This document shows, one piece after another, positions 1 to 35,180 of a stretch of 64,000 nucleotides of DNA. The stretch lies in IMG/VR virus record IMGVR_UViG_3300029305_005420; one strand, 5' to 3'. Made by a program: the position numbers and the translations under genes. The notes beneath the pieces were generated by a model that saw only the letters and a program-made list of their open reading frames with translations, was not told the origin of the DNA and did no database searches. This DNA is from an uncultured virus (IMG/VR IMGVR_UViG_3300029305_005420) (taxonomy: Duplodnaviria; Heunggongvirae; Uroviricota; Caudoviricetes). Each line of letters opens with the position of its first letter. Within the stretch, counting starts at the first letter, position 1.

Positions 1-171
1 TTTAATTATAAAATTGCTATGTCCCTTGCGAACAAGCTGTTTCACGAAGGAACTATAAGCAAGTCGGAATATGCACGAATTGATACAATTATGACCAAAA
101 AATACGGATTATCTTCGTGTAGTATATTCCGAGAAAACAAGCCATATTTACTTGATAATACTACCCTTTAG
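1..171 (+). CDS. 3' part of small SHOCT-like protein preceding the recombinases (truncated by window edge)
   Basis: Frame-1 translation FNYKIAMSLANKLFHEGTISKSEYARIDTIMTKKYGLSSCSIFRENKPYLLDNTTL* aligns with the full copy at 55170-55364. Confidence 0.75.
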   Translation, partial: FNYKIAMSLANKLFHEGTISKSEYARIDTIMTKKYGLSSCSIFRENKPYLLDNTTL

Positions 172-180
172 AGTTAATAT
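152..180 (+). promoter_or_regulatory. Conserved promoter motif TTGATA-N17-TAATAT (with TTTAGAGT) upstream of recombinase A
   Basis: Same motif found 9 times in the window, followed here by RBS AGGAGG. Confidence 0.7.
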
Positions 181-204
181 GTCACACTAATAGGAGGTGA
201 TTAT

Positions 205-1497
205 ATGCAGAGAATTATTACAAGAGTAAACCTCGTACCCAAGCAGCCTAAAGCTAAAAGAATGGCAGCGTATGCACGAGTGTCGACAGGAAAAGATGCT
301 ATGAGACATTCGCTGTCAGCACAGGTTAGTTATTACAGCAACTTAATACAAAGCCACAATGGTTGGCTCTACTGCGGTGTTTATGCCGATGAAGCTCTCA
401 CAGGCACTAAAGACGGCAGAGAGCAGTTTCAAAGAATGCTTAAAGACTGCAGAGAAGGAAAGCTCGATGGTATTATTACGAAATCCATTTCACGATTTGC
501 TCGTAATACCGTCACCTTGCTTGAAACTATCAGAGAGTTAAAGCTCCTCGGAATTGATGTTTTCTTTGAAGAGCAGAATATCCACACGATGAGCTCTGAA
601 GGTGAGTTTTTACTGACAATCCTTGCTTCATATGCACAGGCTGAAAGTTTATCAGCAAGTGAGAACCTTAAATGGCGTATACGAAAGAGCTTTGAAGAAG
701 GAGAGATTTTCTGCATAAGTGACATGTATGGTTACGATAAAAAGGATAAGAAAATGGTTATCAATCCTTCCGAAGCAACTATCGTCAAAGAGATTTTTGA
801 CAGAGCCATTGACGGTGAAAGCCTCAACTCAATAGCTAAAGACTTAACAGCTCGTGGCTACACAACAAAGCGAGGTCGAGAATGGAACGCTTACCGCCTT
901 GCTTGTATGCTTCGAAATGAAAAGTATACCGGCGATTCTTTGCTTCAAAAAACCTACATAAATAACCACTTGCAGAAAAAGAAACTGAAAAACACAGGTC
1001 AGCTCGCACAATATTATGCAGAGAACACTCACGAGGCAATCATCGACTCTATGACCTTTGAAAAAGCACAGTTAGTGATGGCAGAAAAAGCCAAAGCCTG
1101 TGAGAGCTACTCACACCACACAACTACGATGTTTACAAGCTACATCAGGTGTGGTAAGTGTGGGAAAAACTATCGCAGAGGCAAACAAAACAATAAACAC
1201 TTTTGGAATTGTACGACCTTTCTTTCCAAAGGAAAAGCCTACTGCCAAGAGCCTCGCATACCGGAAGATATCCTTTACAGATTAACCGCCGAGGTTATCG
1301 GTATACCGGACTTTTGTGAAGACGATTTGTGCAACAGCGTTATTGATATCGTTGCCTACGACCGCACCCTTACCTTCACGCTTCAAAACGGAGTGCGTGT
1401 TACCAAGGAATGGAAACACAATTCTCGAAGTAAAAGTTGGACACCCGAAATGAAAGAAAAGGCCCGACAAGCAGCCTTAAAACAAAGGAGTAAATAA
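205..1497 (+). CDS. Large serine recombinase A (resolvase + recombinase + zinc ribbon), copy 1
   Basis: AYARVST catalytic motif, KSISRFARN, LRNEKYTG, CGKCG..C zinc ribbon. Confidence 0.95.
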   Translation: MQRIITRVNLVPKQPKAKRMAAYARVSTGKDAMRHSLSAQVSYYSNLIQSHNGWLYCGVYADEALTGTKDGREQFQRMLKDCREGKLDGIITKSISRFARNTVTLLETIRELKLLGIDVFFEEQNIHTMSSEGEFLLTILASYAQAESLSASENLKWRIRKSFEEGEIFCISDMYGYDKKDKKMVINPSEATIVKEIFDRAIDGESLNSIAKDLTARGYTTKRGREWNAYRLACMLRNEKYTGDSLLQKTYINNHLQKKKLKNTGQLAQYYAENTHEAIIDSMTFEKAQLVMAEKAKACESYSHHTTTMFTSYIRCGKCGKNYRRGKQNNKHFWNCTTFLSKGKAYCQEPRIPEDILYRLTAEVIGIPDFCEDDLCNSVIDIVAYDRTLTFTLQNGVRVTKEWKHNSRSKSWTPEMKEKARQAALKQRSK

Positions 1498-3077
1498 TGG
1501 TTAGAAAAGTAACTGTAATACCACCGACAATAAATCCACAAACAATGATTCCGACTGACGCCCTAATAAAAAGGCGAGTCGCAGGATACGCTCGTGTATC
1601 AACTGACTCTGACGAACAGTTCACTTCCTATGAAGCTCAAATTGATTACTACACACAGTATATTAAAAATCGAGCCGACTGGGAGTTCGTAAAGGTTTAC
1701 ACAGACGAAGGTATCTCCGGCACAAACACTAAAAGGCGTGTCGGTTTCAACACTATGATAAAAGACGCCTTGGACGGCAAGATTGACCTTATAGTTACAA
1801 AATCCATCAGCCGATTCGCACGAAATACTGTTGATATGCTCTCCACTATTAGAAAGCTAAAAGAACATGGTGTTGAAGTGTTCTTCGAAAAAGAAAACAT
1901 ATACACTTTTGACAGTAGTGGCGAGGTAATGCTAACAATATTATCCTCGATAGCACAGGAAGAGAGTCGCTCCATTTCCGAGAATGTCACTTGGGGACAT
2001 CGCAAACGATTTGCTGATGGAAAAATATTACTCCCTTATAAGAGTTTTCTCGGATACAAGAAAGGTGCTGACGGCTTGCCAGAGATTGTCCCCGAAGAGG
2101 CAGAAATCGTAAAGCGTATATATAAAATGTTCCTTGACGGCATGACACAGGGAGTAATTGCAAAAACGCTCCAAGAAGAAGGGGTGCCGACTCCGGGCGG
2201 TAAAACACAATGGCGTTTCAATACCATCGACAGCATTTTATCCAATGAAAAATATAAAGGCGATGCTTTATTACAAAAAAAGTTTACAGTCGACTTTTTA
2301 ACAAAGAAACAAAAGGTCAATGAGGGTGAAGTTCCACAGTATTATGTTCAGAACAGCCACCCTGCAATTATTGCTCCCGAAGAGTGGGATTTGGTTCAAC
2401 GAGAGCTTGCAAGACGAAAGAAGCTCGGCGGAAAATATCGCTGTACCGATAGTCTTTGTTGCCGAATTGTCTGCGGAGACTGCGGTGAGTTTTATGGCTC
2501 TAAAACTTGGCACTCCACAAGCAAGTACAAAAGAGTAATATGGCAATGTAACAGCAAGTTCAAAAACGACTGCAAAACACCTACATATTATGCTGATGAT
2601 ATCAAGGACGGTTTCGTTACCGCCATAAATGAAATACTCAAGAACCGAGATGATATCCTTGATAGTTGTCGCCTGATATATGACACTTTAATAGCTCCCC
2701 GTGACATCGACAAAGAGTTAGCGGAATTAACACAAGAGCTTGAAATTGTCACAGAGCTGACACAGAAAATCATACAGGAAAACTCCTCTAAAGCTATGAA
2801 TCAGGGAGAGTTTTGCACCAAATACAATGCTCTTGTTGAACGCTATGAGAAAGCAAAAGAAAAGGCAGAAAGCTTACAGGCCTTAAAGGAAGAACGCCTC
2901 CGAAAAGCCGATGAGCTAAGTGCCTTTATGTTTAGAATCCACGAGCTTGATATTGTTACCGAATTCGATAATCGGCTGTGGCAAAGTGGTATTGATATTG
3001 TCACAGCATACCACGATGGACGACTTGTATATAAATTTGTCAGCGGTCACGAGGTAACCATTCAAAAATCGGAGTAA
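1497..3077 (+). CDS. Large serine recombinase B (with zinc ribbon and coiled coil), copy 1
   Basis: GYARVST, SISRFARN, NEKYKGD, CGDCG..WQC, C-terminal coiled coil; translationally coupled to A. Confidence 0.95.
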   Translation: MVRKVTVIPPTINPQTMIPTDALIKRRVAGYARVSTDSDEQFTSYEAQIDYYTQYIKNRADWEFVKVYTDEGISGTNTKRRVGFNTMIKDALDGKIDLIVTKSISRFARNTVDMLSTIRKLKEHGVEVFFEKENIYTFDSSGEVMLTILSSIAQEESRSISENVTWGHRKRFADGKILLPYKSFLGYKKGADGLPEIVPEEAEIVKRIYKMFLDGMTQGVIAKTLQEEGVPTPGGKTQWRFNTIDSILSNEKYKGDALLQKKFTVDFLTKKQKVNEGEVPQYYVQNSHPAIIAPEEWDLVQRELARRKKLGGKYRCTDSLCCRIVCGDCGEFYGSKTWHSTSKYKRVIWQCNSKFKNDCKTPTYYADDIKDGFVTAINEILKNRDDILDSCRLIYDTLIAPRDIDKELAELTQELEIVTELTQKIIQENSSKAMNQGEFCTKYNALVERYEKAKEKAESLQALKEERLRKADELSAFMFRIHELDIVTEFDNRLWQSGIDIVTAYHDGRLVYKFVSGHEVTIQKSE

Positions 3078-3763
3078 AACTCCTGCATATCATCTAGCCT
3101 AAGACAAGCAAGCCTACCATCTGCATAACCACTTCCACAATCAATCCCTATAGCATTGTCACCTCTCCATATTTTAGGTGGCATATCATTTTGAAAGTGT
3201 ACTGTCGGAGTATGACCAAATATAAGCACATATCCATCCGGGATATGATGACCTGGTTTCCACCGTTTCCATACGGCATACTCCACCTCGTCATCGTAAT
3301 CGTACATGTTATAGCGATTTAAGTAGTAACTTTCAACTGGTGAGCCGTGTACTAGTTTGTATTTTGTCCCGTTGACTTCCACATCAAGATTTGCCGGGAG
3401 TTCTGATAAAAAAGAGAGAACCTCTGCACGGTACACCTTGCGAGTATGCAATAAATACTCGTGGGTAACTCTGCCTCCGTTTCTGTACCAAAGTCGTAAA
3501 TTATCCTCATCGGCTTTTTCCTTTTCTTCAGCAGCATCTCGGCAATGACCGATTGCATTTAACATCATATGCTCGTGATTACCGAGCAACATATGGACAT
3601 TTTCCATCTTCATTAGCTGCCGAAGAATGCCGATGCCTTTTGAGTACCTATCAACAACATCACCAAGTATGTATAAAACATCCTCTTTTTGCAGATTTAT
3701 TTGCCTCATTATTGAGTCAAAACGCTCTCGATTTCCGTGAATGTCGGACATAACATATATCAT
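3062..3763 (-). CDS. Calcineurin-like metallophosphoesterase (PPP / lambda-phosphatase-like), copy 1
   Basis: SDIHG, GDVVDR, GNHE, VHG, FGHT, IDCG motifs. Confidence 0.9.
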   Translation of the reverse strand: MIYVMSDIHGNRERFDSIMRQINLQKEDVLYILGDVVDRYSKGIGILRQLMKMENVHMLLGNHEHMMLNAIGHCRDAAEEKEKADEDNLRLWYRNGGRVTHEYLLHTRKVYRAEVLSFLSELPANLDVEVNGTKYKLVHGSPVESYYLNRYNMYDYDDEVEYAVWKRWKPGHHIPDGYVLIFGHTPTVHFQNDMPPKIWRGDNAIGIDCGSGYADGRLACLRLDDMQEFYSDF

Positions 3764-3778
3764 AACACCCACCTATTT

Positions 3779-4639
3779 TTACACATTAAATAACATACCA
3801 TCTACCGCCGATTGCTCGTCAGTCGGCTTTTTGTTTTTTATAGGCTTGTCCACATGATATATGTCATTAATGTTCATACTGCAATATTTAATTTTCCTTG
3901 TATAAATAAGGAACATAGCCTCGGCATAACCCTTTGCTCCGGGAAGCCTGTCCTTGGCTGAACGGACTATTTCCTTGGGACTAACCGCACTCATCTTGTC
4001 ACGGAACATATCATCGCTGATTTTATCACCGTAAGCTGCGATGAGAATAGATACACCTTTCAACATACTCGCTGTGAGCGACTCCGACTCCCCTTCCCAA
4101 GCCATAACAACTAAACGCAGGGTTCTGTCCAGATTATGAAAACCGTACTTTTTGTATATGTACTCAAGAGCAGCAACAGCACCAATGCAACAGTTATCTT
4201 TTGCTTTGGTTATTTTCAAGTGATATGACTCAACTATCGCCTTGATGGAGAGTTGCATATCGTTCTCTGCTTCAATGTTGGCATTAAAAACATCAAACGA
4301 TGACAGCTTCCTTACATGCTTTTGCTGATTTGCAAAGGTATCGGCCTCTTTAATGTATCCCATATCGTCGTAAACCATACACCATACAGGTGTCTCACGA
4401 GAACCGGATACTAACGCTACAATTTCGATTGTATGCTGACCGTCAAATACATAGTTGATGCCGTCACGCCTACTTACTTTACAAGGGTTAATTTGGTATA
4501 AATCGAAATTATCTGCTGTACGCTGAATGTGGTCTTTAGACAAAGCTCTCTGATAATCTTGGTTTGATACCAAGTCACAGATTCGTATCTGCTCAAAGTG
4601 TACATTAGGCACAAATAGCCTATACTCAAAATCATCCAT
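3779..4639 (-). CDS. ParB/Srx-like protein (DUF6551-like), copy 1
   Basis: YQR and VFDGQHT motifs typical of ParB/DGQHR-like N-domains. Confidence 0.7.
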   Translation of the reverse strand: MDDFEYRLFVPNVHFEQIRICDLVSNQDYQRALSKDHIQRTADNFDLYQINPCKVSRRDGINYVFDGQHTIEIVALVSGSRETPVWCMVYDDMGYIKEADTFANQQKHVRKLSSFDVFNANIEAENDMQLSIKAIVESYHLKITKAKDNCCIGAVAALEYIYKKYGFHNLDRTLRLVVMAWEGESESLTASMLKGVSILIAAYGDKISDDMFRDKMSAVSPKEIVRSAKDRLPGAKGYAEAMFLIYTRKIKYCSMNINDIYHVDKPIKNKKPTDEQSAVDGMLFNV

Positions 4640-5552
4640 TGTTACTATCCTCCATTTCTTTCAAGAAATCACATATAACACCAATCATTGAAACAAGCTC
4701 TACTCGTAGTTTTTGCTTGGTTTCTGAATCGGATTCAACCATATTTGCGACCTTCATAACACGGTTAATTGACGACATCCAAGTCGGCACCGTGTATATT
4801 AGGCTCTTAAGCTCTGCATTGGGGTCATACTTCGGAACTTCCTTGATAGACTGAAGGCCCATTATCCTTTCACCGGAGTTGTTGCCGTTAGTACGAGGTG
4901 CGGGTTTAGCGGTGTCATTGTAGTTACCGCCACCCTTGAGTAGTTTTTCTATTGTCTGCTGACGAGGAGTTGGCGACAATTTAAGTATAGCTTGTAGGGT
5001 TTCTATGGACACCTTTATTTCCTTTTTCATTATCCTCAAGAAAAGCTCCTCCGATACATCAGCTATTGAGCTTAATGTTTCAGCGTGAACACCATACATA
5101 TAAATAGTGTGTGCTACCACTTCAAACTCTTTAGCTAACCTTTCACGGGTTTTCATTGCCGAATCATCATAACAAAACTGCCCATCGAACTCTTGTGGCT
5201 GTTGCTTTGCCAGCTCTTTCTCGACATGAAAACGAGTACCAATCAGATACTTTTTCATCATATCGTTTTCAACGGTCAGCTTGAGGTGCATTTTACAAAC
5301 CTCTGAAACCGCAATCTCAAGTGATGGATATCTCTTGGCTTTTATCCTGTACTTTATGTTGTGCTTATTACAGATATCAAAGGCATCAAAATTCATTAAA
5401 AGACACCCGTGCCACACAAAAAAATACTGATTAAATCCTCTCTGTAATATCTCTTCTTCCAACACCGCTCGCTCTGCTGAATCCAAAGGTAACTCTAACC
5501 GCCTGAATGCCGGTAATATTTTTATATCATTTGCATTCCTGTATTGGCTCAT
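4632..5552 (-). CDS. Protein with degenerate ParB-like N-terminus and probable HTH, copy 1
   Basis: IKILPAFRRLELPL..E...LEEEIL..G...VW pattern; the usual DGHNR is replaced by MNFDA; TRERLAKEFEVVAHTI is HTH-like. Confidence 0.55.
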   Translation of the reverse strand: MSQYRNANDIKILPAFRRLELPLDSAERAVLEEEILQRGFNQYFFVWHGCLLMNFDAFDICNKHNIKYRIKAKRYPSLEIAVSEVCKMHLKLTVENDMMKKYLIGTRFHVEKELAKQQPQEFDGQFCYDDSAMKTRERLAKEFEVVAHTIYMYGVHAETLSSIADVSEELFLRIMKKEIKVSIETLQAILKLSPTPRQQTIEKLLKGGGNYNDTAKPAPRTNGNNSGERIMGLQSIKEVPKYDPNAELKSLIYTVPTWMSSINRVMKVANMVESDSETKQKLRVELVSMIGVICDFLKEMEDSNNG

Positions 5553-5919
5553 CTGTTTTACTCCTTGTTAATAGTTCCGTGTAATTCAATATTTCAAAAA
5601 CGACAATGTTTTTATTGGGCATCTTAACACCCTCTAAACGATAAGTGCAGCCTAGCTTTATTTCGCTACACACTCTGTTAATTTCTCGCAGTAGCGGTGT
5701 ACTTCTAAGCTCAACATAAGCTCGTCCTGCACCGTCGGGGTATAACCTATGAGCTCCTGCCTCGTTTTTGTCTGTACCCATGATGCCAATAGTTAAATCA
5801 TCGGGGTTAATTATCAGCACCGCATACTTGGGATTATCAAGAGCTACAAGCGTAGAACCGTGGATTCTAATTCTATACCTCTTACAATCAAGCGTTAGTG
5901 CCGGCAACCTGTTATTCAT
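5527..5919 (-). CDS. Hypothetical protein, paralogue of the recombinase C C-terminal domain, copy 1
   Basis: Conserved in copy 2; shares the (I/V)NP..., YR..G..., (I/V)F(D/E) pattern with neighbours. Confidence 0.7.
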   Translation of the reverse strand: MNNRLPALTLDCKRYRIRIHGSTLVALDNPKYAVLIINPDDLTIGIMGTDKNEAGAHRLYPDGAGRAYVELRSTPLLREINRVCSEIKLGCTYRLEGVKMPNKNIVVFEILNYTELLTRSKTDEPIQECK

Positions 5920-5931
5920 AAAAAACACTCC

Positions 5932-6594
5932 TTATTCTGTTGTATTGCTGTGATTATCTCTTTTATCTTTAACCCCAAAAACGGTGTAGCCATCGAAGAT
6001 ATTAACTTGCAATAGCTTTTTGTGCTCCTCCACCGGCAGACCGAATTGATTTCTCCACTCTGCAGGGAAGGTTGGGTTTCTTGATGCTCTTACGGTGCCG
6101 TCCTTACGGCTAACATGCTGAAACACCTCTGTGGCTTTAAGGTCAAAAATAATGAGATAATCGTCATTACTTCTTATTATTTTTCCTACCATTTTATATC
6201 GATACTCCGGGTTCCAGCCCATGAGTTCCGAAATTTTTGCAAAGAAGATACGACAGGTTATATAGCGTGGCATTCTCTTACCGTTAGGCTTTGTGTTACA
6301 CCATAAAAACGAGTCCTTCGCATCTTCTGTACAAGGCCTTACAGCAAGGATTTTCGATGTGGGGTTAACAAGAAACTGTACATAATCAACCTCCGGTAAT
6401 CTCCGCAGACAAGCAGCATTCAAATTAACCTTGCAGTTGTTAAAGGTGATTCCCGGCTCTCGCATATGAGCAAAGAATTCACTTCTTACAACTTGGTATC
6501 CCTCATAAGAAAAATTCTCATCGAAAATAACCTCGACTTCCTCTTCCTTTTTCGCTTGTGGTTTTGTGTCAAAAATGTCGCTTAATTCAGGCAT
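5932..6594 (-). CDS. Hypothetical recombinase-associated protein homologous to the recombinase C C-terminal domain, copy 1
   Basis: Core nearly identical to 61057-61788; aligns to C-terminal third of 6587-8452. Confidence 0.8.
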   Translation of the reverse strand: MPELSDIFDTKPQAKKEEEVEVIFDENFSYEGYQVVRSEFFAHMREPGITFNNCKVNLNAACLRRLPEVDYVQFLVNPTSKILAVRPCTEDAKDSFLWCNTKPNGKRMPRYITCRIFFAKISELMGWNPEYRYKMVGKIIRSNDDYLIIFDLKATEVFQHVSRKDGTVRASRNPTFPAEWRNQFGLPVEEHKKLLQVNIFDGYTVFGVKDKRDNHSNTTE

Positions 6595-8452
6595 CGGTTT
6601 TTCCCTCCTGTATGGTTGTTATAATCCCTCTTATTTCAGAAGCCACTACAGCTTCATTAGGCACCTTTAAGTCCGGTATCGAAGAATAACTTGCAGTCTG
6701 CTGATTTGAACCCCATCGGTTCTCATCGATACCTTTATCCTGTCGCTCGCCGTGTACATAAAAATCATTCCCGAAGGTTTCAGACCAAGCCTCCGGCATA
6801 GCTAAAATTGAATTACCTCTGCGAGGTATAACGGGGTGTACTTCGTCCTCGCCACAATCCTCATCAATGGCTGCGTGAGGCACAAATATCTCGGATTCAG
6901 ATAAATCAAACAAGATGATTGCTTTGTTACCCTGCTCTTTCTTCACCCCTTGGAAACGATATCTAAAGTCCGGATTCCAACCGAACATTTCAAACAGAGT
7001 GCTACAAAAGCCGGTGGCTCTAATGCTTCTAGGTCGTGGGCTTCCGTCTGCTCTGTACTTTATCCATTTAAGGGCATTTTTCTCTGACGATGCACATCCC
7101 ATAATAAATAGGAGTTTCTTTTCTGGGTGTACATACATCTCTATGTAAGAGCTGTGCGGTATACGCTTCACACAAGCCGAGCTAAAGCTGACATAGTTGT
7201 TAGCAAAGTTTATCTGCATCTTATCGTTGCTCTCAAAGAACTGTGACCTTGCTATTTCAAAACCTCTTAAATCAAAATCCCCAGACTCTGCCTCAACTGT
7301 ATATTCCTCTGCTGTTTCAGGCACCTCACCCTTTTTGTAAACAGTAGCAGATGCCGAGTAGTAGTCCTCCGGCTTGAAGGCAGCCCAATGAATATTCACT
7401 CGCACAAATCCCTTAAATGGTCCTTTTTCAATAACCTTAAGCTCTGGCAATGCACCTACACCTTTCGAGCTATTGCTCAACATATGCTGCACCGCTATAA
7501 AGTCATCACGGGTAACAATCGGCTCGTGATGGTCTTTCCAACGATACTGCGTTCTTTCACCCTTGTTTTTACGAGCTTGATGTGTTTTATAGCTTGGTGT
7601 GAATGTCTTGCTTGTAAGCACATCACCGCAGTAACGCTCGTTTCGAAGTATGTTGAGAACCGAGGATGATGTCCATGTGGTATTGTCCTTTTTAGTCCTT
7701 CGTTGTAACTCCGTCAGCTTATCTGCGATTTGCTTGAGCGTGAACCCATATATATACATAAAAAATATTAGCCTAACAGTTAAAGCCTCGTCCTCGTTGA
7801 TGATCAGATTACCGTCTGCATCGTGGTCATATCCAAGCAGAACAGGAGTAAGCAAAATGCCGTGGCTGAATCGCATCTCAATAGAGGCATTCATTATGTT
7901 GCTCTTTATATGGGACTCTTCCTGTGCCATTGAAGCGGTGAAGTTGAGTGCCATCTCACTCTTTGTATCGAGAGTGAAAATGTGCTCCGTTTCAAAGAAA
8001 ACACCTACCGGATTTGGAAGGGCTGCTAACTCATCAACAATCGAAACACAGTCAACTACATTTCTCGCAAATCGAGAAACGCTCTTTGTAATAATCATGT
8101 CAATCTTACCGGCTTTGCAGTCCCTTATCATCTGGTTAAAAGCATCACGGTGATTTAACGATGTGCCGGATATACCCTCGTCTGCGAATATATCAACAAG
8201 CACCCAATTTGGGTTTCTATTAACCATGTCTTCATAGTAGTTTTTTTGTAGCTCGTATGATGAGGTCTGCTGTAGGTTATCAGTTGAGACTCGTACATAA
8301 ACAGCAACTCTTCGGTGAACATCGTCATAAAAGTCGTATGTCTTACTTGCAGGTATTACCTCCACATCGTCAACATCCAAGCCTTTATACCGCTGTATGA
8401 TTTTTGCTTTTTGTTCGTCCCTTGTTAGTGCTCTTTTTTCTGATTCGCTCAT
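6587..8452 (-). CDS. Atypical large serine recombinase C (no zinc ribbon; uncharacterised C-terminal domain), copy 1
   Basis: VYVRVST, KSVSRFARN, LRNERYCGD, HHEPIV; no CxxC after the recombinase domain. Confidence 0.9.
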   Translation of the reverse strand: MSESEKRALTRDEQKAKIIQRYKGLDVDDVEVIPASKTYDFYDDVHRRVAVYVRVSTDNLQQTSSYELQKNYYEDMVNRNPNWVLVDIFADEGISGTSLNHRDAFNQMIRDCKAGKIDMIITKSVSRFARNVVDCVSIVDELAALPNPVGVFFETEHIFTLDTKSEMALNFTASMAQEESHIKSNIMNASIEMRFSHGILLTPVLLGYDHDADGNLIINEDEALTVRLIFFMYIYGFTLKQIADKLTELQRRTKKDNTTWTSSSVLNILRNERYCGDVLTSKTFTPSYKTHQARKNKGERTQYRWKDHHEPIVTRDDFIAVQHMLSNSSKGVGALPELKVIEKGPFKGFVRVNIHWAAFKPEDYYSASATVYKKGEVPETAEEYTVEAESGDFDLRGFEIARSQFFESNDKMQINFANNYVSFSSACVKRIPHSSYIEMYVHPEKKLLFIMGCASSEKNALKWIKYRADGSPRPRSIRATGFCSTLFEMFGWNPDFRYRFQGVKKEQGNKAIILFDLSESEIFVPHAAIDEDCGEDEVHPVIPRRGNSILAMPEAWSETFGNDFYVHGERQDKGIDENRWGSNQQTASYSSIPDLKVPNEAVVASEIRGIITTIQEGKTDA

Positions 8453-8464
8453 AGTATCCTCCAG

Positions 8465-8701
8465 TCATGTATCCTTTACGAATTGTTGTTCACCGGGGGC
8501 AGGTATCACTTCAAATATATCGTTGATGGTACATCCAAGTGCGGTACAAATTCTGACAAGAACATCACTTGATACTGCGACTCCGTCTTTGCCCATTTTT
8601 GTGATAGTAGAGATTGCAACACCTGCTTTCTCGGCAAGTTCTTTCTTTTTCATTTCACGGTCAATTAGTAATTTAAATAGTTTTTTGTAGCTCGCTATCA
8701 C
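8465..8701 (-). CDS. Small XRE/Cro-like HTH regulator (HTH_26-like), present only in copy 1
   Basis: SYKKLFKLLIDREMKKKELAEKAGVAISTITKMGK...ICTAL.C...DI; GTG start. Confidence 0.85.
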   Translation of the reverse strand: MIASYKKLFKLLIDREMKKKELAEKAGVAISTITKMGKDGVAVSSDVLVRICTALGCTINDIFEVIPAPGEQQFVKDT

Positions 8702-8766
8702 ATATACCGCCCCTAATATACAATAATGCAAAATTATAATAATGTAAGCAAACAGCCAAATCCATA

Positions 8767-8855
8767 AACCACAAGTCAAGTAGTTGACCGGTGGTTATTA
8801 TTTTCAAAATTATTTTGGAAAAGGACTTTACTTACCGGCGATGTAGAGTTAATAT
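8767..8855 (+). promoter_or_regulatory. Palindromic operator (AACCAC-N2-GTCAA-N4-TTGAC-N2-GTGGTT) and promoter TTTACT-N17-TAATAT for the XRE gene
   Basis: Palindrome at 8767-8796; homologous region at 63712-63801. Confidence 0.6.
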
Positions 8856-8879
8856 CCTGACCACAAAGGAGTGACTATA

Positions 8880-9254
8880 ATGGAACCTACAATCGACTAC
8901 CGCCGACTTGGTAAAAGAATAGGCGACCTCAGACGAGACAGAAAACTATCACAATCACAGCTCGCTGAATTAGCAAACCTCACCGACTCGTACATCAGCT
9001 ACATTGAAACAGGCAGAAAGAAAGCAAGCCTTGAATCACTAGTTAAAATAGCCGGTGCTCTTGGTGTAACCCTTGACCGCATACTGCTCGGCAATCAACA
9101 AAACGACCTAAAAGATTATCTGTCGGAGTTGGAGTTACTGATGAAGGATTGCTCCCCATATGAGAAGGCAATCATCTACGATATGGTTAAGTCCATCAAA
9201 AACAGCCTTATAAAAAATAAGGGCCTGATTTTTCAATCAGACCAAGAATACTAA
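8880..9254 (+). CDS. XRE-family HTH transcriptional regulator, copy 1
   Basis: LSQSQLAELANLTDSYISYIETGRKKASLESLVKIA. Confidence 0.92.
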   Translation: MEPTIDYRRLGKRIGDLRRDRKLSQSQLAELANLTDSYISYIETGRKKASLESLVKIAGALGVTLDRILLGNQQNDLKDYLSELELLMKDCSPYEKAIIYDMVKSIKNSLIKNKGLIFQSDQEY

Positions 9255-9328
9255 ATTGGATTGTGTGCCAACTTTGAAATCCCTCCTCGCTTTCACGAGT
9301 TGGCCAAGAAAATTAAGTGCCTACTTTC

Positions 9329-9426
9329 AAAAAGGGCACCCCCAACCCAAAAAGGGCAGGGTCGCCATAGAAAAAAGGGCACCCCTGTTTCAAAAAAGGG
9401 CAGGGTTTAGAGGGGGTGCCCTTTTT
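9329..9426 (+). repeat. Four direct plus one inverted copies of AAAAAGGGCA
   Basis: Direct copies start at 9329, 9349, 9372, 9393; inverted TGCCCTTTTT at 9417. Confidence 0.9.
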
Positions 9427-9476
9427 GTATCAAAACCATACACCTTTGCCAAATAAGGACTACGGTATTGATACAA
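9425..9476. other. Candidate serine-recombinase attachment site (TTGTATCAA ... TTGATACAA inverted repeat, 52 bp)
   Basis: Perfect 9-bp inverted arms just downstream of the recombination module; function inferred. Confidence 0.4.
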
Positions 9477-9534
9477 TGCTGTAGTCCTTTACTTTTCCCA
9501 TAAACAAGCCGTTTTCAGGCATTTTTGCAAAAAC

Positions 9535-9585
9535 AAACTCCCTGTTTAAGGTATGATTTTAACCTTAAATTCAGGGAGTTTTTTC
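9535..9585. terminator. Long hairpin, probable bidirectional terminator
   Basis: AAACTCCCTG-TTTAAGGT...ACCTTAAAT-TCAGGGAGTTT followed by T-run, between convergent genes. Confidence 0.6.
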
Positions 9586-9726
9586 GTTTTTTATAGCCGG
9601 TAGTTTGTTTGTTTTAACTACCGTTTTTCTTTATGGGGTAATCGTTTTTCTTTGTAGGCTATCGTATTTCTTGTTGTTCCGTTCCTATAAAAATAGAGTT
9701 TTTGAAAAATCAGTTGTTTTAATAAC

Positions 9727-10662
9727 TTACTTTATAAAAGGTGCAAAAGCCTTTCTGAGTAATAAAACCTTATCAATTGCGGCGTTCATAAGTTCAGGGT
9801 AGTTATCTTGATTGTTAAAGTTCAACTCTGGAATATAGGTGCATACCATAGCGGCTTTTCTATTATCAAGCCTATCCCATGTTAACTCCATACCGCAAGC
9901 AGTTTCAATGGCTTCCTTATTTGAATAGAAATAATCAAACAGTTCCTTGTTATCGTTAATCCACACACCGACTCTTATTTTATGCTCTTTGTTTACAAGG
10001 TCCATAGATATGTAACACTCTGATGTACCCATAGCTACACAGTACCAATGGTCTGTATTAGCCTTTCTCTTATTAAAAGGCTTGCCACGCTCTTCAAGCA
10101 CATCGTTGAACATAGTCCAAAACTCTAAACGCTTTTTCTCTGTCTCACTAATATCTGAACGCTTAGATATTGTTTTTACTGTTTTAACAAAATCATTAGG
10201 CTGTTCTATTATCTTGAACTGCGGTGCTGGCTGTGAATCTCCAATCTTATAGGCGTGAACTTCTATTAAGAAAAATGCAAGCTCATCGTCAGTATGTTTG
10301 TTGAGCCACTCTACGGCACTTGCATGTTCCTGTTTCGCAGAAGCAACAATCCAAACAACCACAGAGGCATCAAGGCCTGATGCGTAAGTAATGGTTTTAC
10401 CAAGGTGCTCGTGGTTTGTAGGCTCTAACTGGTTTTCAATTAATACGGTTTTTCCAGTTATTTCATCCTTACAAAGAATGTCACAGCGATAATTACCTAC
10501 AAACTTTTCTGTCTCAATATCGGTTAGCGAAAGATTAAGCACATCGCCTAACTCTTGTATGTTGCTCTCACTTGCAAGCCACTTTGAAAAATCATACTGC
10601 TCATGATGCCATACTTTTCTTATATCTACTTCTTGTAATTTACCTAATTTCATAAAAAGCAA
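9727..10662 (-). CDS. DUF4268-domain protein with N-terminal PD-(D/E)XK nuclease-like domain
   Basis: W.HE..DFS.WL, CDIL...VLIENQL..T.H.HLGK.ITYA; C-terminal domain with FW..F and L.W.RLD. Confidence 0.75.
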   Translation of the reverse strand: MLFMKLGKLQEVDIRKVWHHEQYDFSKWLASESNIQELGDVLNLSLTDIETEKFVGNYRCDILCKDEITGKTVLIENQLEPTNHEHLGKTITYASGLDASVVVWIVASAKQEHASAVEWLNKHTDDELAFFLIEVHAYKIGDSQPAPQFKIIEQPNDFVKTVKTISKRSDISETEKKRLEFWTMFNDVLEERGKPFNKRKANTDHWYCVAMGTSECYISMDLVNKEHKIRVGVWINDNKELFDYFYSNKEAIETACGMELTWDRLDNRKAAMVCTYIPELNFNNQDNYPELMNAAIDKVLLLRKAFAPFIK

Positions 10663-10680
10663 CCTCTCTATCGTGTCAAT

Positions 10681-12627
10681 TTATAGACCCGGAATAAGCT
10701 GTGCAAGAAACTTCTGTATACGAGTCGCATCCATAATTGTTACTCTACCATCACTATCCGTATCCGCTACAGATAAAGCAATATCATCAAGTGTTGTAAG
10801 TTGAGCAAGGTGTCGTTGAATTTGTGTAGCATCCTTTATGGTTACTCTGCCGTCAAGGTCAACATCACCATTATCATAAGCCGATGGTGTAGGTGGTGTG
10901 ATTGGTGGGTTATCAGGAGCTACAACATTACCACCTGTAGATGGTTCTGTTGGAATATCTGTGCCACTCTCTTCATCCACCTTAACTTTATAAGTCAAAA
11001 TATTTGAGCTATAAGGACCGTGAACAGAAAGCAAATATGCACCCGGTTCGTACATAACCACCTCGTATCCCTTTGTATAATACAATCTATCAGTAACTGT
11101 CATTCCTGAAGATACCAAATTATAAACGAACTCTATATCTTCACTACAAGTAATAGTGTATGTCTGAGAAGCCGTGGAATATATTTCTATCTCAAAAGCC
11201 TCTCCAACCTCAACTTCATAATCGTATTCTACATCAGGGTTAACCACCCACTGTGCTGTAATTGTCATGTCAGAAGTTACATTAGAAAAGTCTAAATCCC
11301 AACCATTAAATATATAAAGCTCGTTTGTTGGTGCTTTAGGCTCGATTGCCGATTCACCATCTATAACTCTTTGTGTGCTTACAGTCGCACCAAAACCATC
11401 TTTAAAAATCACTATGTGACTTGTGGCATCTCCACCAGTTTCTAACTCTTTAACCTCAAAGTTTAGATAAGACAAATCCTGTTTAGTAGTTCCATAATGA
11501 TGAGTTTGAGAATTAGCAATAACCGTTGAGTTATCATTTTTGTCATCCATAGAAATATACTCTACAGTCCATACTCCTGATACAGTTTCCTCGTCTACTA
11601 TAAATTCACCTTGGAAGGTATTACTGTCGGAAATCCTATTTAAAACAACGCTCTCACTAACCCCTGAAGGTCTTTCGTAACTTATGTATATATAACTGTT
11701 AGGATTTTCGTCATCAACGACTGCAGTAAAGGTTATAGTCTCGCCTACAGAAACAAAGGTTTTATTCATCTCAAAGGAAACCAACACAGGAGGGTCTGTA
11801 TCTGCATTAGTGCCTATTACCTCAAAACTTAAATGCGACAAATCCTGCTTCACTTCACCATAGGTATACTGTGGGTAATTAGCAACAGTTGTTTTATTCT
11901 CGTATTTATCATAAAGTGTAATATATTTTACATTCCAAACACCCGACTCTGTTTGTTCGCCCACGGTAATCTTGCCTTCGTAAGTATTACCTTCACCCAC
12001 TTTCTTTAGGGTTACAGTATCACTAATGCCCGATGGTCTCTCGTAGGTTATGTAGGCAAGTCTAATATAGCTCTCATCCGTTATTGTCGCAGTAAATGTT
12101 ATAGTTTCATCCAAAGAAACAAGGGACTTGTCCATTTCAATGGAAGTCAGCACCGGAGACTCTATATCCGCATTTGTACCCACTACCTCAAAACTCAAAT
12201 GAGACAAATCTTGCTTGACCTCTCCGTATGTATATTGAGGGTAATTAGCCACCGTTGTTGTGTTTTCATATTTATCAATGAGCGTAATATACATTACATT
12301 CCAAACGCCTGATTCTGTGTCATCCGCTACTGCAAGCTCACCTTCGTAGACACCATCATCTACTTTAGTCAAGGCTATGGATTCACTAACACCGGAAGGT
12401 CTCTCATATGATATATAAGCAAGACTGATATTACTCTCATCCACTACGGTAGCTGTAAATGTTACTATTTCACCTGCTGATAAAAGTGTCTTGTCTGCGG
12501 ATATGCTTTCGAGAACAGGAGCTGTTACATCTGCGGCAGATACCGACACTGGCAAAGCAGTAATAAACATTAACATAGCCATTAGTGTTGCAATGAATTT
12601 TACAGTTGTTTTTTTCATAACATCCAC
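10681..12627 (-). CDS. Secreted protein: signal peptide, three ~120-aa Ig-like repeats, InlB-B/Flg_new-like repeat, C-terminal type I dockerin
   Basis: MKKTTVKFIATLMAML..VSA signal; repeated D..PVL.S....K...GE.ITFTA; F.GWD.DFSNVTSDMTITAQW; GDVDLDGRVTIKDATQIQ..ADTDSDGRVTIMDATRIQ. Confidence 0.85.
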   Translation of the reverse strand: MDVMKKTTVKFIATLMAMLMFITALPVSVSAADVTAPVLESISADKTLLSAGEIVTFTATVVDESNISLAYISYERPSGVSESIALTKVDDGVYEGELAVADDTESGVWNVMYITLIDKYENTTTVANYPQYTYGEVKQDLSHLSFEVVGTNADIESPVLTSIEMDKSLVSLDETITFTATITDESYIRLAYITYERPSGISDTVTLKKVGEGNTYEGKITVGEQTESGVWNVKYITLYDKYENKTTVANYPQYTYGEVKQDLSHLSFEVIGTNADTDPPVLVSFEMNKTFVSVGETITFTAVVDDENPNSYIYISYERPSGVSESVVLNRISDSNTFQGEFIVDEETVSGVWTVEYISMDDKNDNSTVIANSQTHHYGTTKQDLSYLNFEVKELETGGDATSHIVIFKDGFGATVSTQRVIDGESAIEPKAPTNELYIFNGWDLDFSNVTSDMTITAQWVVNPDVEYDYEVEVGEAFEIEIYSTASQTYTITCSEDIEFVYNLVSSGMTVTDRLYYTKGYEVVMYEPGAYLLSVHGPYSSNILTYKVKVDEESGTDIPTEPSTGGNVVAPDNPPITPPTPSAYDNGDVDLDGRVTIKDATQIQRHLAQLTTLDDIALSVADTDSDGRVTIMDATRIQKFLAQLIPGL

Positions 12628-12655
12628 TCCCTTAAAGTGTTGTTTTAGTTCTTAG

Positions 12656-15427
12656 TTATTGTGATGTTAACTTCTGATACATTTTCATCAGCTCTGCCAC
12701 ACAAGACGACTCAGTTGTGTTCTTAATGTCAAAGCCATAAGCTCGCATAACTGCACGGTCATTATCTTGATGTGCCTTTCTAAGCTCTGGTGGCATATAG
12801 AGCTCATCGTAAAGGTCGGCAAGTGAGCTATCAGGATACAACGCACGAGCATCAAGAATAGCCTGTGCTGTTTGCTCTATCTTTACTTTTTGTTCTTCTG
12901 TCGGATTAGGCCAAGGGAACGTGTTATAAACCATTGTATTTGAATATCTATAATCACTCTTTAATCTGCCACAAACTGTTCGCATCCACGCCATATGAAC
13001 ATTAGAAGTTAATATGCCAAATGTATAAATATCCGCATTATCTACAAAAAACAAAGCATTGGTATAAACCATACCTTCCGGCATAAAACATATTGGAATA
13101 TATTTACGATTTTCAGATGATACTACCGGAACAACAACGCTTTTCCCATTAGGCACCTGTGGTTGAAAATATCTTGATGGAGTATCCTTAAGAGCGGCAG
13201 TTGAAGGGCTCGAATTATTGGCTCTGAACTCATACACAGCGTTTACTCTGCTCCTTATAAAACTACTATCTCTAAGGTCTTTAGGAGAACAATTTTCTAA
13301 GTATAGCACATACTTTTCCTCACCATTATTCAGCAAATCTCTTGCATTATAATATTTTCTTATGTACTTCGCTATTTCAGGTTCTTTATCAATAACTGCA
13401 CGGTATTCTTCTTCATTGCCTACTATAAAATTGCCACCGTCAATTAGTTGTGCTCCCTTTGTCATTTTAGGAATATCACATAGCGGTTTTCCAACTTTGT
13501 CAATAAATATATTATCTGCAGGTGCCAAATACTGATTAATATTACTGCATCTTAAAAACTTTTGATCGGTAAATAACACTTTTTCTAAATTATTATTCTT
13601 AGAGAATCCAATAATAACACAATGGACATGGGCCTTATCGACCGCTTCACTATCCCATTTAAAAGTGTTGTATGCAAAGTTAATATATATTTTTTCTACT
13701 TCAAACAAGTATTTCCATATGGTAAGAGCTTGTTCACCCTGTGTGATGGAATTACTTGAAACAAATGCACAGCAAATATTAGTTCCATTTATATATTTAG
13801 AAGCCTTAAAATACCAACATGCAACATAATCCAACTGTTTATATTTACTTAATGGTATGGTTAAGCTCATATCTTTTTTATTCTCATCTGTACAGCTTCT
13901 CATTCCAACAAACGGTGGATTACCCATAATGTAGTTGAGTTTATCCTTTGGTACTACATCTTCCCAGTCTATACGAAGAGCGTTACCTTCGATAATATTG
14001 GCATAAGAAGTAAGAGGTAAGAAATCAAGGTTCTTATGAACTATCTCCTCGGTTTCTTTCATCATCTGCGATTCAGCTATCCACAACGCAGTCTTAGCAA
14101 CAGTTACTGCAAAGTCGTTGATTTCAAGACCGTAGAATTGACCAATTGACACCTTAATTATACCGCCGGTATCAATAACGATTTGGTCACCGTAGATTTC
14201 TTTTAGTGCTTCGTTCTCAAGGCGGCGAAGACTTATGTATGTTTCCGTCAGGAAGTTACCCGAACCGCAAGCAGGGTCTAAAAATGTCAGACCGCTGAGT
14301 TTATCTCTGAAATCATTTAGTTTCTTTTCTCTCGTTTTTGTAACTTTAGTTTCTTTTATCTGTTCAAACTCTGCCCACAACTCATCCAAAAACAGAGGGT
14401 CTATAACCTTATGGATATTCTCTATAGAGGTATAGTGCATACCGCCACTACGACGAGTTTCAGGGTTCAATGTACTTTCAAATACCGCACCAAATATAGT
14501 AGGACTAATCTCTGACCAGTCGAAGTCGGCACTTGCATTCTCAAGAAGTATCTCCTTAATTTCATCGCTAAACTGAGGAATTATAATATCGGCATCGGCA
14601 AACAGACCGCCATTCACATATGGGAATGACAGCAACATCTCATCCTCGTATTCATCCCTGTCCTCATACTTTGTATCAAGCATACGGAACAGGTCAATCA
14701 ATGCCTTTCTCATTTCACGAGCAGAAAAAGAATTGATGTAATTATAAAACTTATTGTGTCCACCAAAAACACCTGCATCTTCTGCATACAAACAGAATAC
14801 GAGTCGTACACAAAGCATATTTAAGCTCTTAAGAACGGCATCGTCCTCGGCATTGTGGTACTGCTTTAGAATCTCGTCATACAATCTACCAACAATTTTA
14901 CCGGCATCAATAGACACCTTGAGTTCTTTCTTTATGTTCTCATCGTCCTTGTCTACCAAGAACTGCAATCTATAATACTCTTTATGTAAATTTTTCAGTT
15001 CTATATGCTCAGGGTCTGAATTAGGTCTTTCTAAGTCGTATATCAAAAAATCGGTGAAGTTACAAGTTACAATCCATCTTGGACGCTGTGAGTAAGGTAA
15101 TGTTGAAGCATAACGCTGTGCCTGTTGAAAAGGCGTAAGCAAAGACCCATCCGACTGACGGATAGGTTTTTTGAGGTCTTTGCCTTTGCTTTTCTGTTCT
15201 ATTAAAACATGTGTTGAAGGGATATGACCGTCTATAAAACTGGCGTGGTCGAGCTGAGCCTTCTCTTCAAAAATAATAAAATGAGCAGGGTCTTCAACTC
15301 CGTAAACCTTCTGCAAAAGCTCCATCCAAAATGGTTGGCTTTCACCTTTCTCATATCCTCTTTCTGCCCAATACTCAGCAAAGGCTTTTGCTTGTATTCT
15401 CTGTTCTGCTTCTTTCATGTAAATCAC
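12656..15427 (-). CDS. MmeI-like type IIL/IIG single-chain restriction-modification enzyme (N6-adenine MTase)
   Basis: N-terminal FIDG..VLIEQKS nuclease motif, GMHYTS, FLDPACGSGNFL, GNPPF, GRLKSDYRYS, SLADLYD. Confidence 0.9.
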   Translation of the reverse strand: MIYMKEAEQRIQAKAFAEYWAERGYEKGESQPFWMELLQKVYGVEDPAHFIIFEEKAQLDHASFIDGHIPSTHVLIEQKSKGKDLKKPIRQSDGSLLTPFQQAQRYASTLPYSQRPRWIVTCNFTDFLIYDLERPNSDPEHIELKNLHKEYYRLQFLVDKDDENIKKELKVSIDAGKIVGRLYDEILKQYHNAEDDAVLKSLNMLCVRLVFCLYAEDAGVFGGHNKFYNYINSFSAREMRKALIDLFRMLDTKYEDRDEYEDEMLLSFPYVNGGLFADADIIIPQFSDEIKEILLENASADFDWSEISPTIFGAVFESTLNPETRRSGGMHYTSIENIHKVIDPLFLDELWAEFEQIKETKVTKTREKKLNDFRDKLSGLTFLDPACGSGNFLTETYISLRRLENEALKEIYGDQIVIDTGGIIKVSIGQFYGLEINDFAVTVAKTALWIAESQMMKETEEIVHKNLDFLPLTSYANIIEGNALRIDWEDVVPKDKLNYIMGNPPFVGMRSCTDENKKDMSLTIPLSKYKQLDYVACWYFKASKYINGTNICCAFVSSNSITQGEQALTIWKYLFEVEKIYINFAYNTFKWDSEAVDKAHVHCVIIGFSKNNNLEKVLFTDQKFLRCSNINQYLAPADNIFIDKVGKPLCDIPKMTKGAQLIDGGNFIVGNEEEYRAVIDKEPEIAKYIRKYYNARDLLNNGEEKYVLYLENCSPKDLRDSSFIRSRVNAVYEFRANNSSPSTAALKDTPSRYFQPQVPNGKSVVVPVVSSENRKYIPICFMPEGMVYTNALFFVDNADIYTFGILTSNVHMAWMRTVCGRLKSDYRYSNTMVYNTFPWPNPTEEQKVKIEQTAQAILDARALYPDSSLADLYDELYMPPELRKAHQDNDRAVMRAYGFDIKNTTESSCVAELMKMYQKLTSQ

Positions 15428-15589
15428 CTTTGATTAATCAATTCTTATTTATGTGACTGGTGCATCTTTTTACTTATAATTAGAATTATTATAACATAGC
15501 TTTTTGTCAAGTTCAATGAAAATACAAATGTTAATTCTAAATCTTATGTAATTATTATACACCCTATTAAGTCCTATAAAACGGACTAC

Positions 15590-15621
15590 AAAAAAAAAAG
15601 AGGAAGGCCTAAACCTTCCTC
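15590..15621 (-). terminator. Rho-independent terminator of the nuclease gene
   Basis: GAGGAAGG/CCTTCCTC stem followed by a long T-run on the minus strand. Confidence 0.75.
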
Positions 15622-15627
15622 GATTAT

Positions 15628-16860: not shown

Positions 16861-17258
16861 ACTTCAATAGTGATTTTGTCGTGAGAAGAACCTGCGATGT
16901 CCTCTGTCGATATCTTTTTGAAACCCTCACCCTTTAAGTCAATGTCAAAATACTTGTCAGCAGGATATTTCCTGTTCCAATGACAGAGTACGATTTCAGA
17001 CACACCTTCAGCAGAGTATGGACCATCCTCTATAAAGCAGTAGTCATCAGCTCCGGCTTTATTGATGTAGTCATCATCAGTTATAAAGGAACTGTGTTCA
17101 GTAAACTGTTTAGCAGAGTATGTACTCATCCACAGTTTGCTTCCTGCAGTCATCTCCATAAGCCTCGCTCTAAGGTTGCTATCTTGGGATTGTCTCTTAC
17201 CAAAGAACATCATACCTTTTCCTTTTTCTACGCAGAATATTAATTTCATTTTCTGCAC
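16842..17258 (-). CDS. Conserved hypothetical protein, possibly DHFR-like fold
   Basis: MKLIFCV...GMMF..KRQS.D, WNRKYPAD.YF; coupled to the nuclease gene; fold is a guess. Confidence 0.55.
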   Translation of the reverse strand: MQKMKLIFCVEKGKGMMFFGKRQSQDSNLRARLMEMTAGSKLWMSTYSAKQFTEHSSFITDDDYINKAGADDYCFIEDGPYSAEGVSEIVLCHWNRKYPADKYFDIDLKGEGFKKISTEDIAGSSHDKITIEVWRREP

Positions 17259-32983: not shown

Positions 32984-33106
32984 ACCGTTGTGTCTATTAC
33001 ACAATCTATCAGGAAATAAAACTACATTGTTTTGTAGTATTACATCTTGATAAAATGTCGTTTTAGAGCGAATATGTACCTACCAAAATTAAAGGAGGAC
33101 ACAACG

Positions 33107-33998: not shown

Positions 33999-34133
33999 TA
34001 ATACACACAATACCACCAAAATAGACCCCGAATGTTTGTGTAATATATAGTGCCAAATTGACTTGATATAGTGTGCTTTTAGAGTTAATATACACACACC
34101 GAAACAAAAGAAAACACTTTACGGAGGCACATT

Positions 34134-35081: not shown

Positions 35082-35180
35082 ACGAAAACAGCAGGGATTA
35101 GCCTTATGCTACTTTTCACCCGACCGCTTCGGCGGTCTTAAGGTGGTAGAAGGGTGCTCCTTCAAGAAAGGATGAGTCAA

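Follow-up and report, generated by a model that had tools for sequence, protein, structure and literature searches.

A conserved phage cassette in which a serine recombinase without a zinc ribbon is accompanied by paralogues of its C-terminal domain and by ParB-type proteins

Large serine recombinases such as phiC31, Bxb1, A118, SPbeta SprA and CcrAB consist of an N-terminal catalytic domain, which bears the nucleophilic serine, followed by a Recombinase domain, and the direction of their reaction is described in PMC3783163 and PMC5499577 as being controlled by a coiled coil. Here, we analyze a cassette encoded in a 64,000-nucleotide (nt) stretch of DNA, hereinafter the window, from an uncultured virus of the Caudoviricetes (IMG/VR record IMGVR_UViG_3300029305_005420), where six tightly packed and co-directional open reading frames (ORFs) occupy positions 3062 to 8452 on the minus strand. 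The first of them, which we name recC, encodes a protein that shares with large serine recombinases the order of the first two domains as well as the phage and mobile-element setting. It differs from them in that it has no zinc ribbon and no sign of the direction-controlling coiled coil, carries a beta-rich domain that no other protein architecture was found to contain, and is always accompanied by four dedicated partner genes (g2 to g5).

According to our analysis, recC (6587-8452, minus strand) encodes a serine recombinase of 621 amino acids (aa) which matches Pfam Resolvase PF00239 (E value, 6e-26) and, with its residues 220-327, Recombinase PF07508 (2e-24). Without exception, the motifs YxRVST (with Ser56), DEGISG and SRFARN are conserved in the 37 RecC relatives compared, and RecC retains all the catalytic hallmarks of an active serine recombinase. 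No match of RecC to the zinc ribbon family Zn_ribbon_recom PF13408 was found at an E value of ≤0.01; the two large serine recombinases encoded beside the cassette, recA and recB, match the same family at 4e-9 and 1e-7, respectively. Furthermore, residues 330-621 contain four isolated Cys residues and not a single CxxC pair, and no conserved Cys pair is present across the 37 RecC-family sequences. An earlier note on this DNA, made from its letters alone, had recognized the VRVST motif, the recombinase domain and the missing CxxC zinc ribbon, and all three are borne out. As for the coiled coil, the model of the paralogue g2 is beta-rich with short helices only. The zinc ribbon of RecC is replaced by a beta-rich domain that is also present as the separate proteins g2 and g3.

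This C-terminal domain was retrieved in 106 proteins, which all belong to one recombinase family: 96 contain both Resolvase and Recombinase, nine are shorter and contain Recombinase only, and one has no Pfam domain on record. Outside its first two domains, no Pfam family is available for RecC. Its best NCBIfam matches, far below threshold, are CcrB, CcrC, CcrA and XisF, while the PHROGs match is phrog_95, annotated as "integrase". Since it is devoid of a zinc ribbon, which is a defining feature of large serine recombinases, we did not file RecC as an ordinary member of that group.

The new domain (approximately residues 378-560 of RecC) recurs in the next two genes of the cassette, g2 (5932-6594, minus strand), which encodes a 220-aa paralogue without a catalytic domain and is the best conserved small protein of the cassette, and g3 (5527-5928, minus strand), which encodes a third and shorter paralogue of 133 aa. 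In BLASTP comparisons, RecC residues 378-553 align with g2 residues 12-187 with 28% identity (E value, 5e-28), the match between RecC and g3 is marginal (0.014), and nothing significant connects g2 and g3. A comparison by hhalign of the g3 family (36 proteins) with the g2 family (74 proteins) returned a probability of 97.8% and an E value of 1.3e-12 over 103 columns, and the threefold paralogy is therefore real, in agreement with the earlier note, which had seen the C-terminal third of RecC align with g2 and more weakly with g3. Homologues are abundant, with 687 for g2 at 50 to 100% identity and 1412 representatives for g3 at an E value of ≤1e-3; no fused or longer form of g2 was scored, by a method that is weak at 28% identity.

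Neither g2 nor g3 matches any entry of NCBIfam or PHROGs, a search of the PDB sequences with the g2 profile was empty, and the ESM Atlas returned just viral clusters that are unnamed or labelled "putative integrase". The AlphaFold2 model of g2 has a mean predicted local distance difference test (pLDDT) value of 77, with a core above 90, and gave no Foldseek match at an E value of ≤1e-3. In a structure alignment, the top four rows are all MraZ proteins, with weak Z scores of 4.3 to 4.7 (1n0f, with Z of 4.7 and a root mean square deviation of 3.1 over 84 aligned residues, followed by 1n0e, 9qlg and 9r4j), and the next row has a Z score of 3.0; plant B3 DNA-binding domains reach 2.2 to 3.4. The MraZ/AbrB and plant B3 pseudo-barrels are thus the best, if weak, structural matches of the shared domain, although no sequence similarity to them was detected and the domain has no solved relative. 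We take this as a lead, drawn from the model, that the shared domain may be a DNA-binding pseudo-barrel. When the C-terminal domain of RecC was modelled in complex with g2 and g3, the score was 0.44, but a control with the RecC chain swapped reached 0.69, so that the prediction argues neither for nor against binding.

The last two partner genes encode proteins with ParB-type folds. The product of g4 (4632-5552, minus strand; 306 aa) resembles ParB, Noc and KorB, with an N-terminal ParB fold, a helix-turn-helix (HTH) and a C-terminal helical hairpin. None of the Pfam models, including those of ParB, matched g4 either alone or in any of 38 family members, and a search of the PDB sequences with the g4 profile was empty. 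The AlphaFold2 model (pLDDT, 86.9), instead, retrieved by Foldseek only members of the ParB family in rows 1 to 29 (Noc, Spo0J, pNOB8 ParB, KorB and CTP-bound ParB), with probabilities of 0.89 to 1.0, weak E values of 4e-3 to 6e-2 and 200 to 230 columns aligned. Most relatives of g4 contain the motif IIDGHNRYEIC, a GxxR-type box that we take to be the nucleotide site of the ParB-CTPase fold. In the window it is degenerate and reads LLMNFDAFDIC, for which the earlier description of g4 as a degenerate ParB-like/HTH protein was apt. The g4 proteins of L012 and L017 are examples with an intact motif. Because the motif is lost in the clade of the window, nucleotide gating cannot be universal. As a separate observation, an internal stop was met when tracing the g4 ORF in eight loci (L010, L020, L032, L043, L044, L048, L050 and L075), which could reflect a split gene, a frameshift or a tracing artifact.

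The product of g5 (3779-4639, minus strand; 286 aa) belongs to Pfam DUF6551 (125.2 bits with a cutoff of 26.8; E value, 4e-36), adopts the ParB-CTPase fold, carries the DGQHT motif reported in the earlier note, and also matches phrog_1033. Phage DUF6551 fusions are reported in a preprint (10.1101/2025.10.10.680097) to bind CTP or ATP and, given these data, a nucleotide switch is plausible for g5 by analogy. Among the ParB-CTPase proteins (ParB/Spo0J, Noc, KorB and the DUF6551 fusions), g4 and g5 are therefore at home by fold, whereas the cassette differs from those systems in that it has no ParA partner, g4 lies outside the Pfam ParB models, and the nucleotide-site motif has disappeared from the clade of the window.

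When we compared 80 loci, 52 from species-level genomes and 28 from viral contigs, the order recC-g2-g3-g4-g5 on a single strand was kept in all of them as far as the DNA reaches, and the stops and starts of neighboring genes were found to mostly overlap. Genes g3 and g4 are present in 78 of the 80 loci and g5 in 75, each miss falling at a contig end. In the window, the gene junctions are overlaps of 8, 26 and 8 nt and gaps of 3 and 6 nt. The conserved unit consists of the five genes recC to g5, of an upstream gene encoding an Xre-type regulator and, in many loci, of a palindrome of about 40 base pairs (bp). The earlier note had described a six-gene operon: six co-directional ORFs are indeed present in the window, whereas the unit kept across genomes comprises five of them together with the Xre gene and the palindrome. 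Conservation of the operon independently of this phage, which the note had proposed to check, is seen in the many genomes in which the order is constant.

The sixth ORF, g6 (3062-3772, minus strand), encodes a NinI-like metallophosphatase of 236 aa (Metallophos PF00149, 9e-17; phrog_246, 8e-44), confirming the phosphatase assignment made previously. A g6-like gene occurs in 16 of the 80 loci and directly follows g5 only in one (L053); it is absent from L001 and L002, where the g2, g4 and g5 proteins are 100% identical to those of the window, g3 is 98% identical and the end of recB lies 29 nt beyond g5. The phosphatase is thus optional cargo outside the conserved cassette, and the gating by phosphorylation that had been suggested for the system finds no support. 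Metallophosphoesterase genes of various kinds (phrog_547 with DUF7695, phrog_1649 and phrog_246) recur near the cassette and the integrase operon, at window positions 53943-54746 and in operons upstream in L036 and L037.

According to pairwise DNA comparisons, the conserved unit is a discrete block of about 5.4 kb that extends from the far end of the Xre gene to the g5 stop codon. In the comparison of L023 with L018, identity is 95.7% over 7439-12977, falls to 68 to 72% in the left flank, and the right flank is unrelated; the block alone is common to the pairs L012/L063, L017/L049 and L040/L038. Similarity stops at the g5 stop and at the Xre end, and neither conserved noncoding ends nor terminal or inverted repeats were found at these limits, so that the cassette does not qualify as a transposon bounded by terminal repeats. 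After g5, many loci show a hairpin followed by a T run that resembles an intrinsic terminator when read by eye. A promoter scan gave hits that were no commoner than in shuffled sequences.

The region upstream of recC contains the palindrome, which we define as an inverted repeat with 11 to 19 matched positions per arm and a spacer of 0 to 24 nt. Among 57 distinct upstream regions, 25 have it centered 29 to 81 nt ahead of recC; W1 and L001, in which a small HTH gene has been inserted, have it at 329 nt and bring the total to 27 of 57. In L017, the same site is the second-best repeat. By comparison, the best match in 285 shuffles averaged 5.3 positions and never exceeded 14. The core of the arm is close to AACCAC(A)GGT, except in one subclade, which has AATAGACCA instead. 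In the window, the palindrome is imperfect and lies, without strand, at 8765-8798 with the sequence ATAACCACCGGTCAA-ctac-TTGACTTGTGGTTTAT, upstream of the operon, where it is a candidate site for RecC, a candidate operator or both. In 24 of 26 loci, the two arms of one palindrome are the only ones detected between 3 kb upstream and 1.5 kb past g5, the exceptions being L070, with an extra half-site, and L025, whose sole palindrome is about 1.7 kb upstream; the window itself holds no further palindromes besides those of its two cassettes. With arms of 14 to 20 bp, a short spacer and central bases that are mostly nonpalindromic, the palindrome looks more like the crossover site of a serine recombinase than like a simple repressor operator.

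A second RecC clade has a related palindrome located 680 to 725 nt upstream, before an extra ORF of 200 to 250 aa, in 8 of 20 loci. This extra ORF occurs in one RecC clade, between the Xre gene and recC (L025 7407-8015, L036 7329-7985, L037 7404-8018 and L050 7302-8051), and has a subthreshold match to the resolvase catalytic domain (E values, 9e-5 to 7e-3); it may encode a paralogue consisting of the catalytic domain only.

The gene for the Xre-type regulator, of about 120 aa, is directly upstream of recC in most loci and is usually divergent, as in the window (8871-9254, plus strand), where it matches Pfam, has the conserved C-terminal DCSxYEK and is the leftmost gene of the conserved block. 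In one clade (L018, L023, L024, L028, L029, L042 and L068), the gene is co-directional with recC at the same distance. This reversal, together with the weak MraZ-like structural match of g2, would suit a regulatory device in which the palindrome is an Xre operator only, g2 and g3 are transcription factors akin to MraZ/AbrB, and RecC occasionally inverts the Xre segment as a heritable switch. We regard this as highly improbable. On a quick RecC tree, one or two flips suffice to explain the orientations, so that a single origin is possible, and no second inverted site flanking the Xre gene was found. The contigs of four public runs, whose cover is fragmentary, provided no joint that could be used at any of three places, the palindrome, the recB/g6 junction and the surroundings of the Xre gene, and no inverted joint at the last of these, although contigs hide rare forms; those of one run track the window only to about position 9450.

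Resolvase/res systems whose reaction involves accessory sites or proteins include Tn3/gamma-delta, Sin with Hbsu, the beta recombinase and the multimer-resolution operon parCBA of RK2. As in these systems, a divergent promoter region holds the presumed site, with recC immediately downstream of it, each element has a single site, and extra DNA-binding subunits would confer selectivity. Unlike them, the cassette shows one palindrome with no array of subsites detected, its enzyme belongs to the large type, and the part played there by extra resolvase dimers or host proteins would fall to dedicated paralogues and proteins of the ParB fold. We propose, tentatively and as a reading somewhat more likely to be wrong than right, that the cassette is an autoregulated, accessory-factor-dependent and resolvase-like site-specific recombination module that acts at its own palindrome. 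RecC dimers would bind and cut at the palindrome, while g2 and g3 would sit on related DNA motifs as noncatalytic architectural or competing subunits, similar to the extra resolvase dimers at the accessory sites of res. The ParB-like proteins, which in most lineages are predicted to bind nucleotides, would load on the same DNA and license synapsis or confine it to sites on one molecule. A single site per element suggests a reaction of the resolution type, which would separate phages or elements that are dimeric or in tandem and, along with Xre, would also serve to autoregulate the operon.

Several points weigh against such a module. No product of recombination was observed, it is not obvious why a phage that integrates would need to resolve dimers, and a ParA partner is not present. 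As to the site, 12 of 20 clade-I loci have no palindrome by our definition, the palindrome of the second cassette in the window is poorer (4 mismatches in 16), the neighborhood of the palindrome yielded no accessory repeats, and the palindrome could simply be the operator of Xre. As to the proteins, the structural matches of g2 are weak (Z below 5) and g4 has no nucleotide-site motif in the clade of the window. Finally, the setting, which is prophage-terminal with a regulator and a terminator of its own, suits cargo for defense or exclusion equally well, and restriction or other defense genes are next door in five of five annotated contexts.

A more elaborate version of the proposal, a new class of multisubunit serine recombination machine close to the one imagined in the earlier note, holds that the zinc ribbon and coiled coil were exchanged for a detachable module made of the g2/g3 paralogues and of two ParB-type nucleotide-switch clamps, and that these clamps would sense whether two sites share one molecule, for use either in the upkeep of monomeric phage genomes or as a barrier to related incoming phages. 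We consider it doubtful in this complete form.

The genomic distribution of the cassette bears on whether RecC serves integration. Its carriers are temperate phages of Candidatus Heliusvirales (Ca. Heliusvirales) and other clostridial mobile elements, and in the Ca. Heliusvirales phages the cassette is carried as accessory cargo close to the end where the lysogeny and attachment functions lie. In GenBank, g2 was found in 20 phage records, 16 of which are "NatCom" gut phages, with two more IMG/VR-derived records of the same accession series. Plasmids gave just one weak match, with 23% identity, and a plasmid home is therefore unsupported. Among 399 sampled genomes of the class, eight carry the cassette, once each, and four isolate genomes likewise have one copy each. 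Culturable lysogens are found in Anaerocolumna sp. MB42-C2, Lacrimispora amygdalina DSM 12857, Neglectibacter caecimuris and Clostridium sp. KNHs205.

In the window, the convergent neighbors of the cassette are the paired zinc-ribbon large serine recombinases recA (205-1497, plus strand) and recB (1497-3077, plus strand), probably the integrases of the phage. A convergent zinc-ribbon recombinase is present within 3.5 kb of g5 in 28 of the 58 loci with enough flank, and in 15 of them within 150 nt. This proximity would be expected if RecC were an alternative integrase, or a third subunit or directionality controller of the neighboring integrases, and if g2 to g5 set site choice and direction, thus assuming the role of the missing zinc ribbon and coiled coil. 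The complete genome G002 can be read in the same sense: the g5 end lies 100 to 125 nt from chromosomal DNA beside comEC, the recombinase pair is 52 to 55 kb away at the other prophage end, and both would flank attP in the circular phage. In the provirus record G037, moreover, RecC is the sole recombinase found.

However, such a neighbor is missing from the other 30 of the 58 loci, and in L037 the cassette is on the other side of the integrase operon, flanked by it and by lysis genes. Among whole viral records, RecC occurs with a pair of large serine recombinases in G036 and G039 but with tyrosine integrases in G038, and G037, where it is alone, is a trimmed record (91% complete) whose close relative G002 has the pair 52 kb off. 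In addition, every detected palindrome is uninterrupted next to recC, which is what one would expect of a site that integration never splits, and there is no conservation past the g5 stop codon. Since RecC is found alongside a pair of serine integrases, alongside tyrosine integrases, or without either in its vicinity, it is probably not the main integrase, and a role in integration or excision seems improbable to us. The nearest relative of G002 has a different insert, of roughly 56 kb, at the very same point beside comEC, and neither an empty chromosomal site nor an attachment core could be defined.

Two further observations concern the attachment region. Two related Anaerocolumna-group genomes (L023 at about 13001, L090 at about 10640, and L094) have different inserts of 56 to 60 kb at an identical point beside comEC, and, at the far border of one of them, all that is left of a recB-like gene is its final 96 nt. 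A motif GAGGTT..TAAAATGTA..AACCTC follows the g5 terminator within 150 nt of g5 in L032, L038, L050, L074, L075 and L077 and is reversed in L036, L037, L039, L069 and L072, as read by eye; it may represent the attachment site of the neighboring integrases.

The cargo-like behavior of the cassette leads to the other alternative, namely, that it is a prophage-borne defense or superinfection-exclusion system, a moron with its own Xre-controlled promoter, where the ParB-like proteins together with g2 and g3 would sense or load on incoming DNA and RecC would cut it, rearrange it or fuse it into the resident element. Its location at a prophage end, its own regulator and the terminator-like hairpin seen in many loci agree with this explanation, as do its sporadic occurrence and the high conservation of its sequences across bacterial families. 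Restriction or other defense genes are located on the Xre side, up to 7 kb upstream, in L012, L017, L023 and L035, and the Xre side of the window likewise encodes an MmeI-type enzyme and a nonspecific endonuclease; in L012, the cassette is intact with no phage genes within about 8 kb. On the other hand, none of the six proteins matches any PADLOC-DB 2.0 model (2023 library) at an E value of ≤0.1, and to our knowledge no defense system is built on a catalytic serine recombinase. Moreover, residence in a hot spot for cargo implicates the cassette by association only. We deem defense a serious but unlikely explanation, and retain the resolvase-like module as the preferred one.

The earlier note had also reported a second, diverged copy of the operon with all genes intact. 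Such a copy exists, since window 55271-63660 matches 78-8466 with 75% nucleotide identity, recombinases A and B included, and all of its genes are intact; instead of a duplicate, though, it is part of a second phage genome. The second copy comprises recA' and recB' (55398-58276, plus strand), g6 to recC (58264-63718, minus strand) and a palindrome at about 63710-63745 with the spacer gtgt. The copies are 55,193 bp apart, which is one phage-genome length, and the DNA between them amounts to a complete genome of siphovirus type, including genes for replication, packaging, the head, the tail and lysis; a RecC protein with 99% identity was found elsewhere on a contig of 55,285 bp. We therefore read the window as two related phage genomes joined head to tail, and the spacing of the copies rules out a duplication inside one element. 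The nearest record, G001, corresponds to window 9447-59192. The arrangement could be a tandem lysogen, or an assembly that passes via a circular genome into a co-occurring relative. Between the two copies, nonsynonymous differences per site are 0.08 for recC, g2 and g5 and 0.21 to 0.23 for g4 and g6, and synonymous differences are saturated at 0.68 to 0.79 per site, values indicative of strong purifying selection.

Other features of the window are reported here for completeness. A small HTH_26 gene (8465-8779, minus strand; Pfam match), lying between the palindrome and recC, probably starts at the ATG near 8653 and is found in the same place only in the near-identical loci L001, L002 and L053. 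A small ORF with a SHOCT_2 domain (19-171 and 54996-55364) precedes recombinase A and travels with the A/B pair; it has upstream matches in 19 of the 80 loci. Between the cassette on one side and the phage early genes on the other is a cargo island (9727-17258, minus strand) of low guanine-plus-cytosine content (0.37 to 0.40), which encodes a DUF4268 protein, a 648-aa repeat protein ending with a dockerin domain, the complete MmeI-type restriction-modification enzyme (12656-15427) and the nonspecific endonuclease (15628-16860). A ParB-like domain fused to a DNA methyltransferase (31640-32983; phrog_498 and phrog_620) is unrelated to the cassette and constitutes the third ParB-fold protein in this phage. 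Finally, two amidoligase genes and one for a gamma-glutamyl cyclotransferase (33047-35642) are flanked by the small and large terminase genes, a position at which auxiliary genes in Heliusvirales are noted by a 2026 preprint.

A search for descriptions of such a system in Pfam, NCBIfam, PADLOC, the names of PHROGs and the literature returned none, in line with the earlier statement that no characterized system has this architecture. The products of g2, g3 and g4 have no family match in Pfam, NCBIfam, PHROGs (by name) or PADLOC, and no description of a coupling between ParB proteins and recombinases was found in the literature searched. There is a real chance that the cassette, an undescribed variation on serine-recombinase systems, embodies a new principle of control. 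Serine integrases are major tools of genome engineering, and their choice of site and direction rests on the zinc ribbon and the coiled coil; if our proposal is true, the RecC lineage would represent a second way of controlling a serine recombinase and would provide the first link between ParB-type nucleotide switches and recombination. The annotation of the cassette in public records gives no hint of this, given that g2 is labelled "hypothetical protein" in 16 of 16 annotated records, all five cassette genes are hypothetical proteins in PV036411.1, which is filed under Ca. Heliusvirales, and a full-text term search of a 2024 paper on Ca. Heliusvirales returned no mention of recombinases or ParB. 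Ca. Heliusvirales is among the most widespread groups of temperate phages in the human gut and, since the cassette resides in these phages under hypothetical labels, its function bears on how they persist, exchange cargo and exclude rivals.

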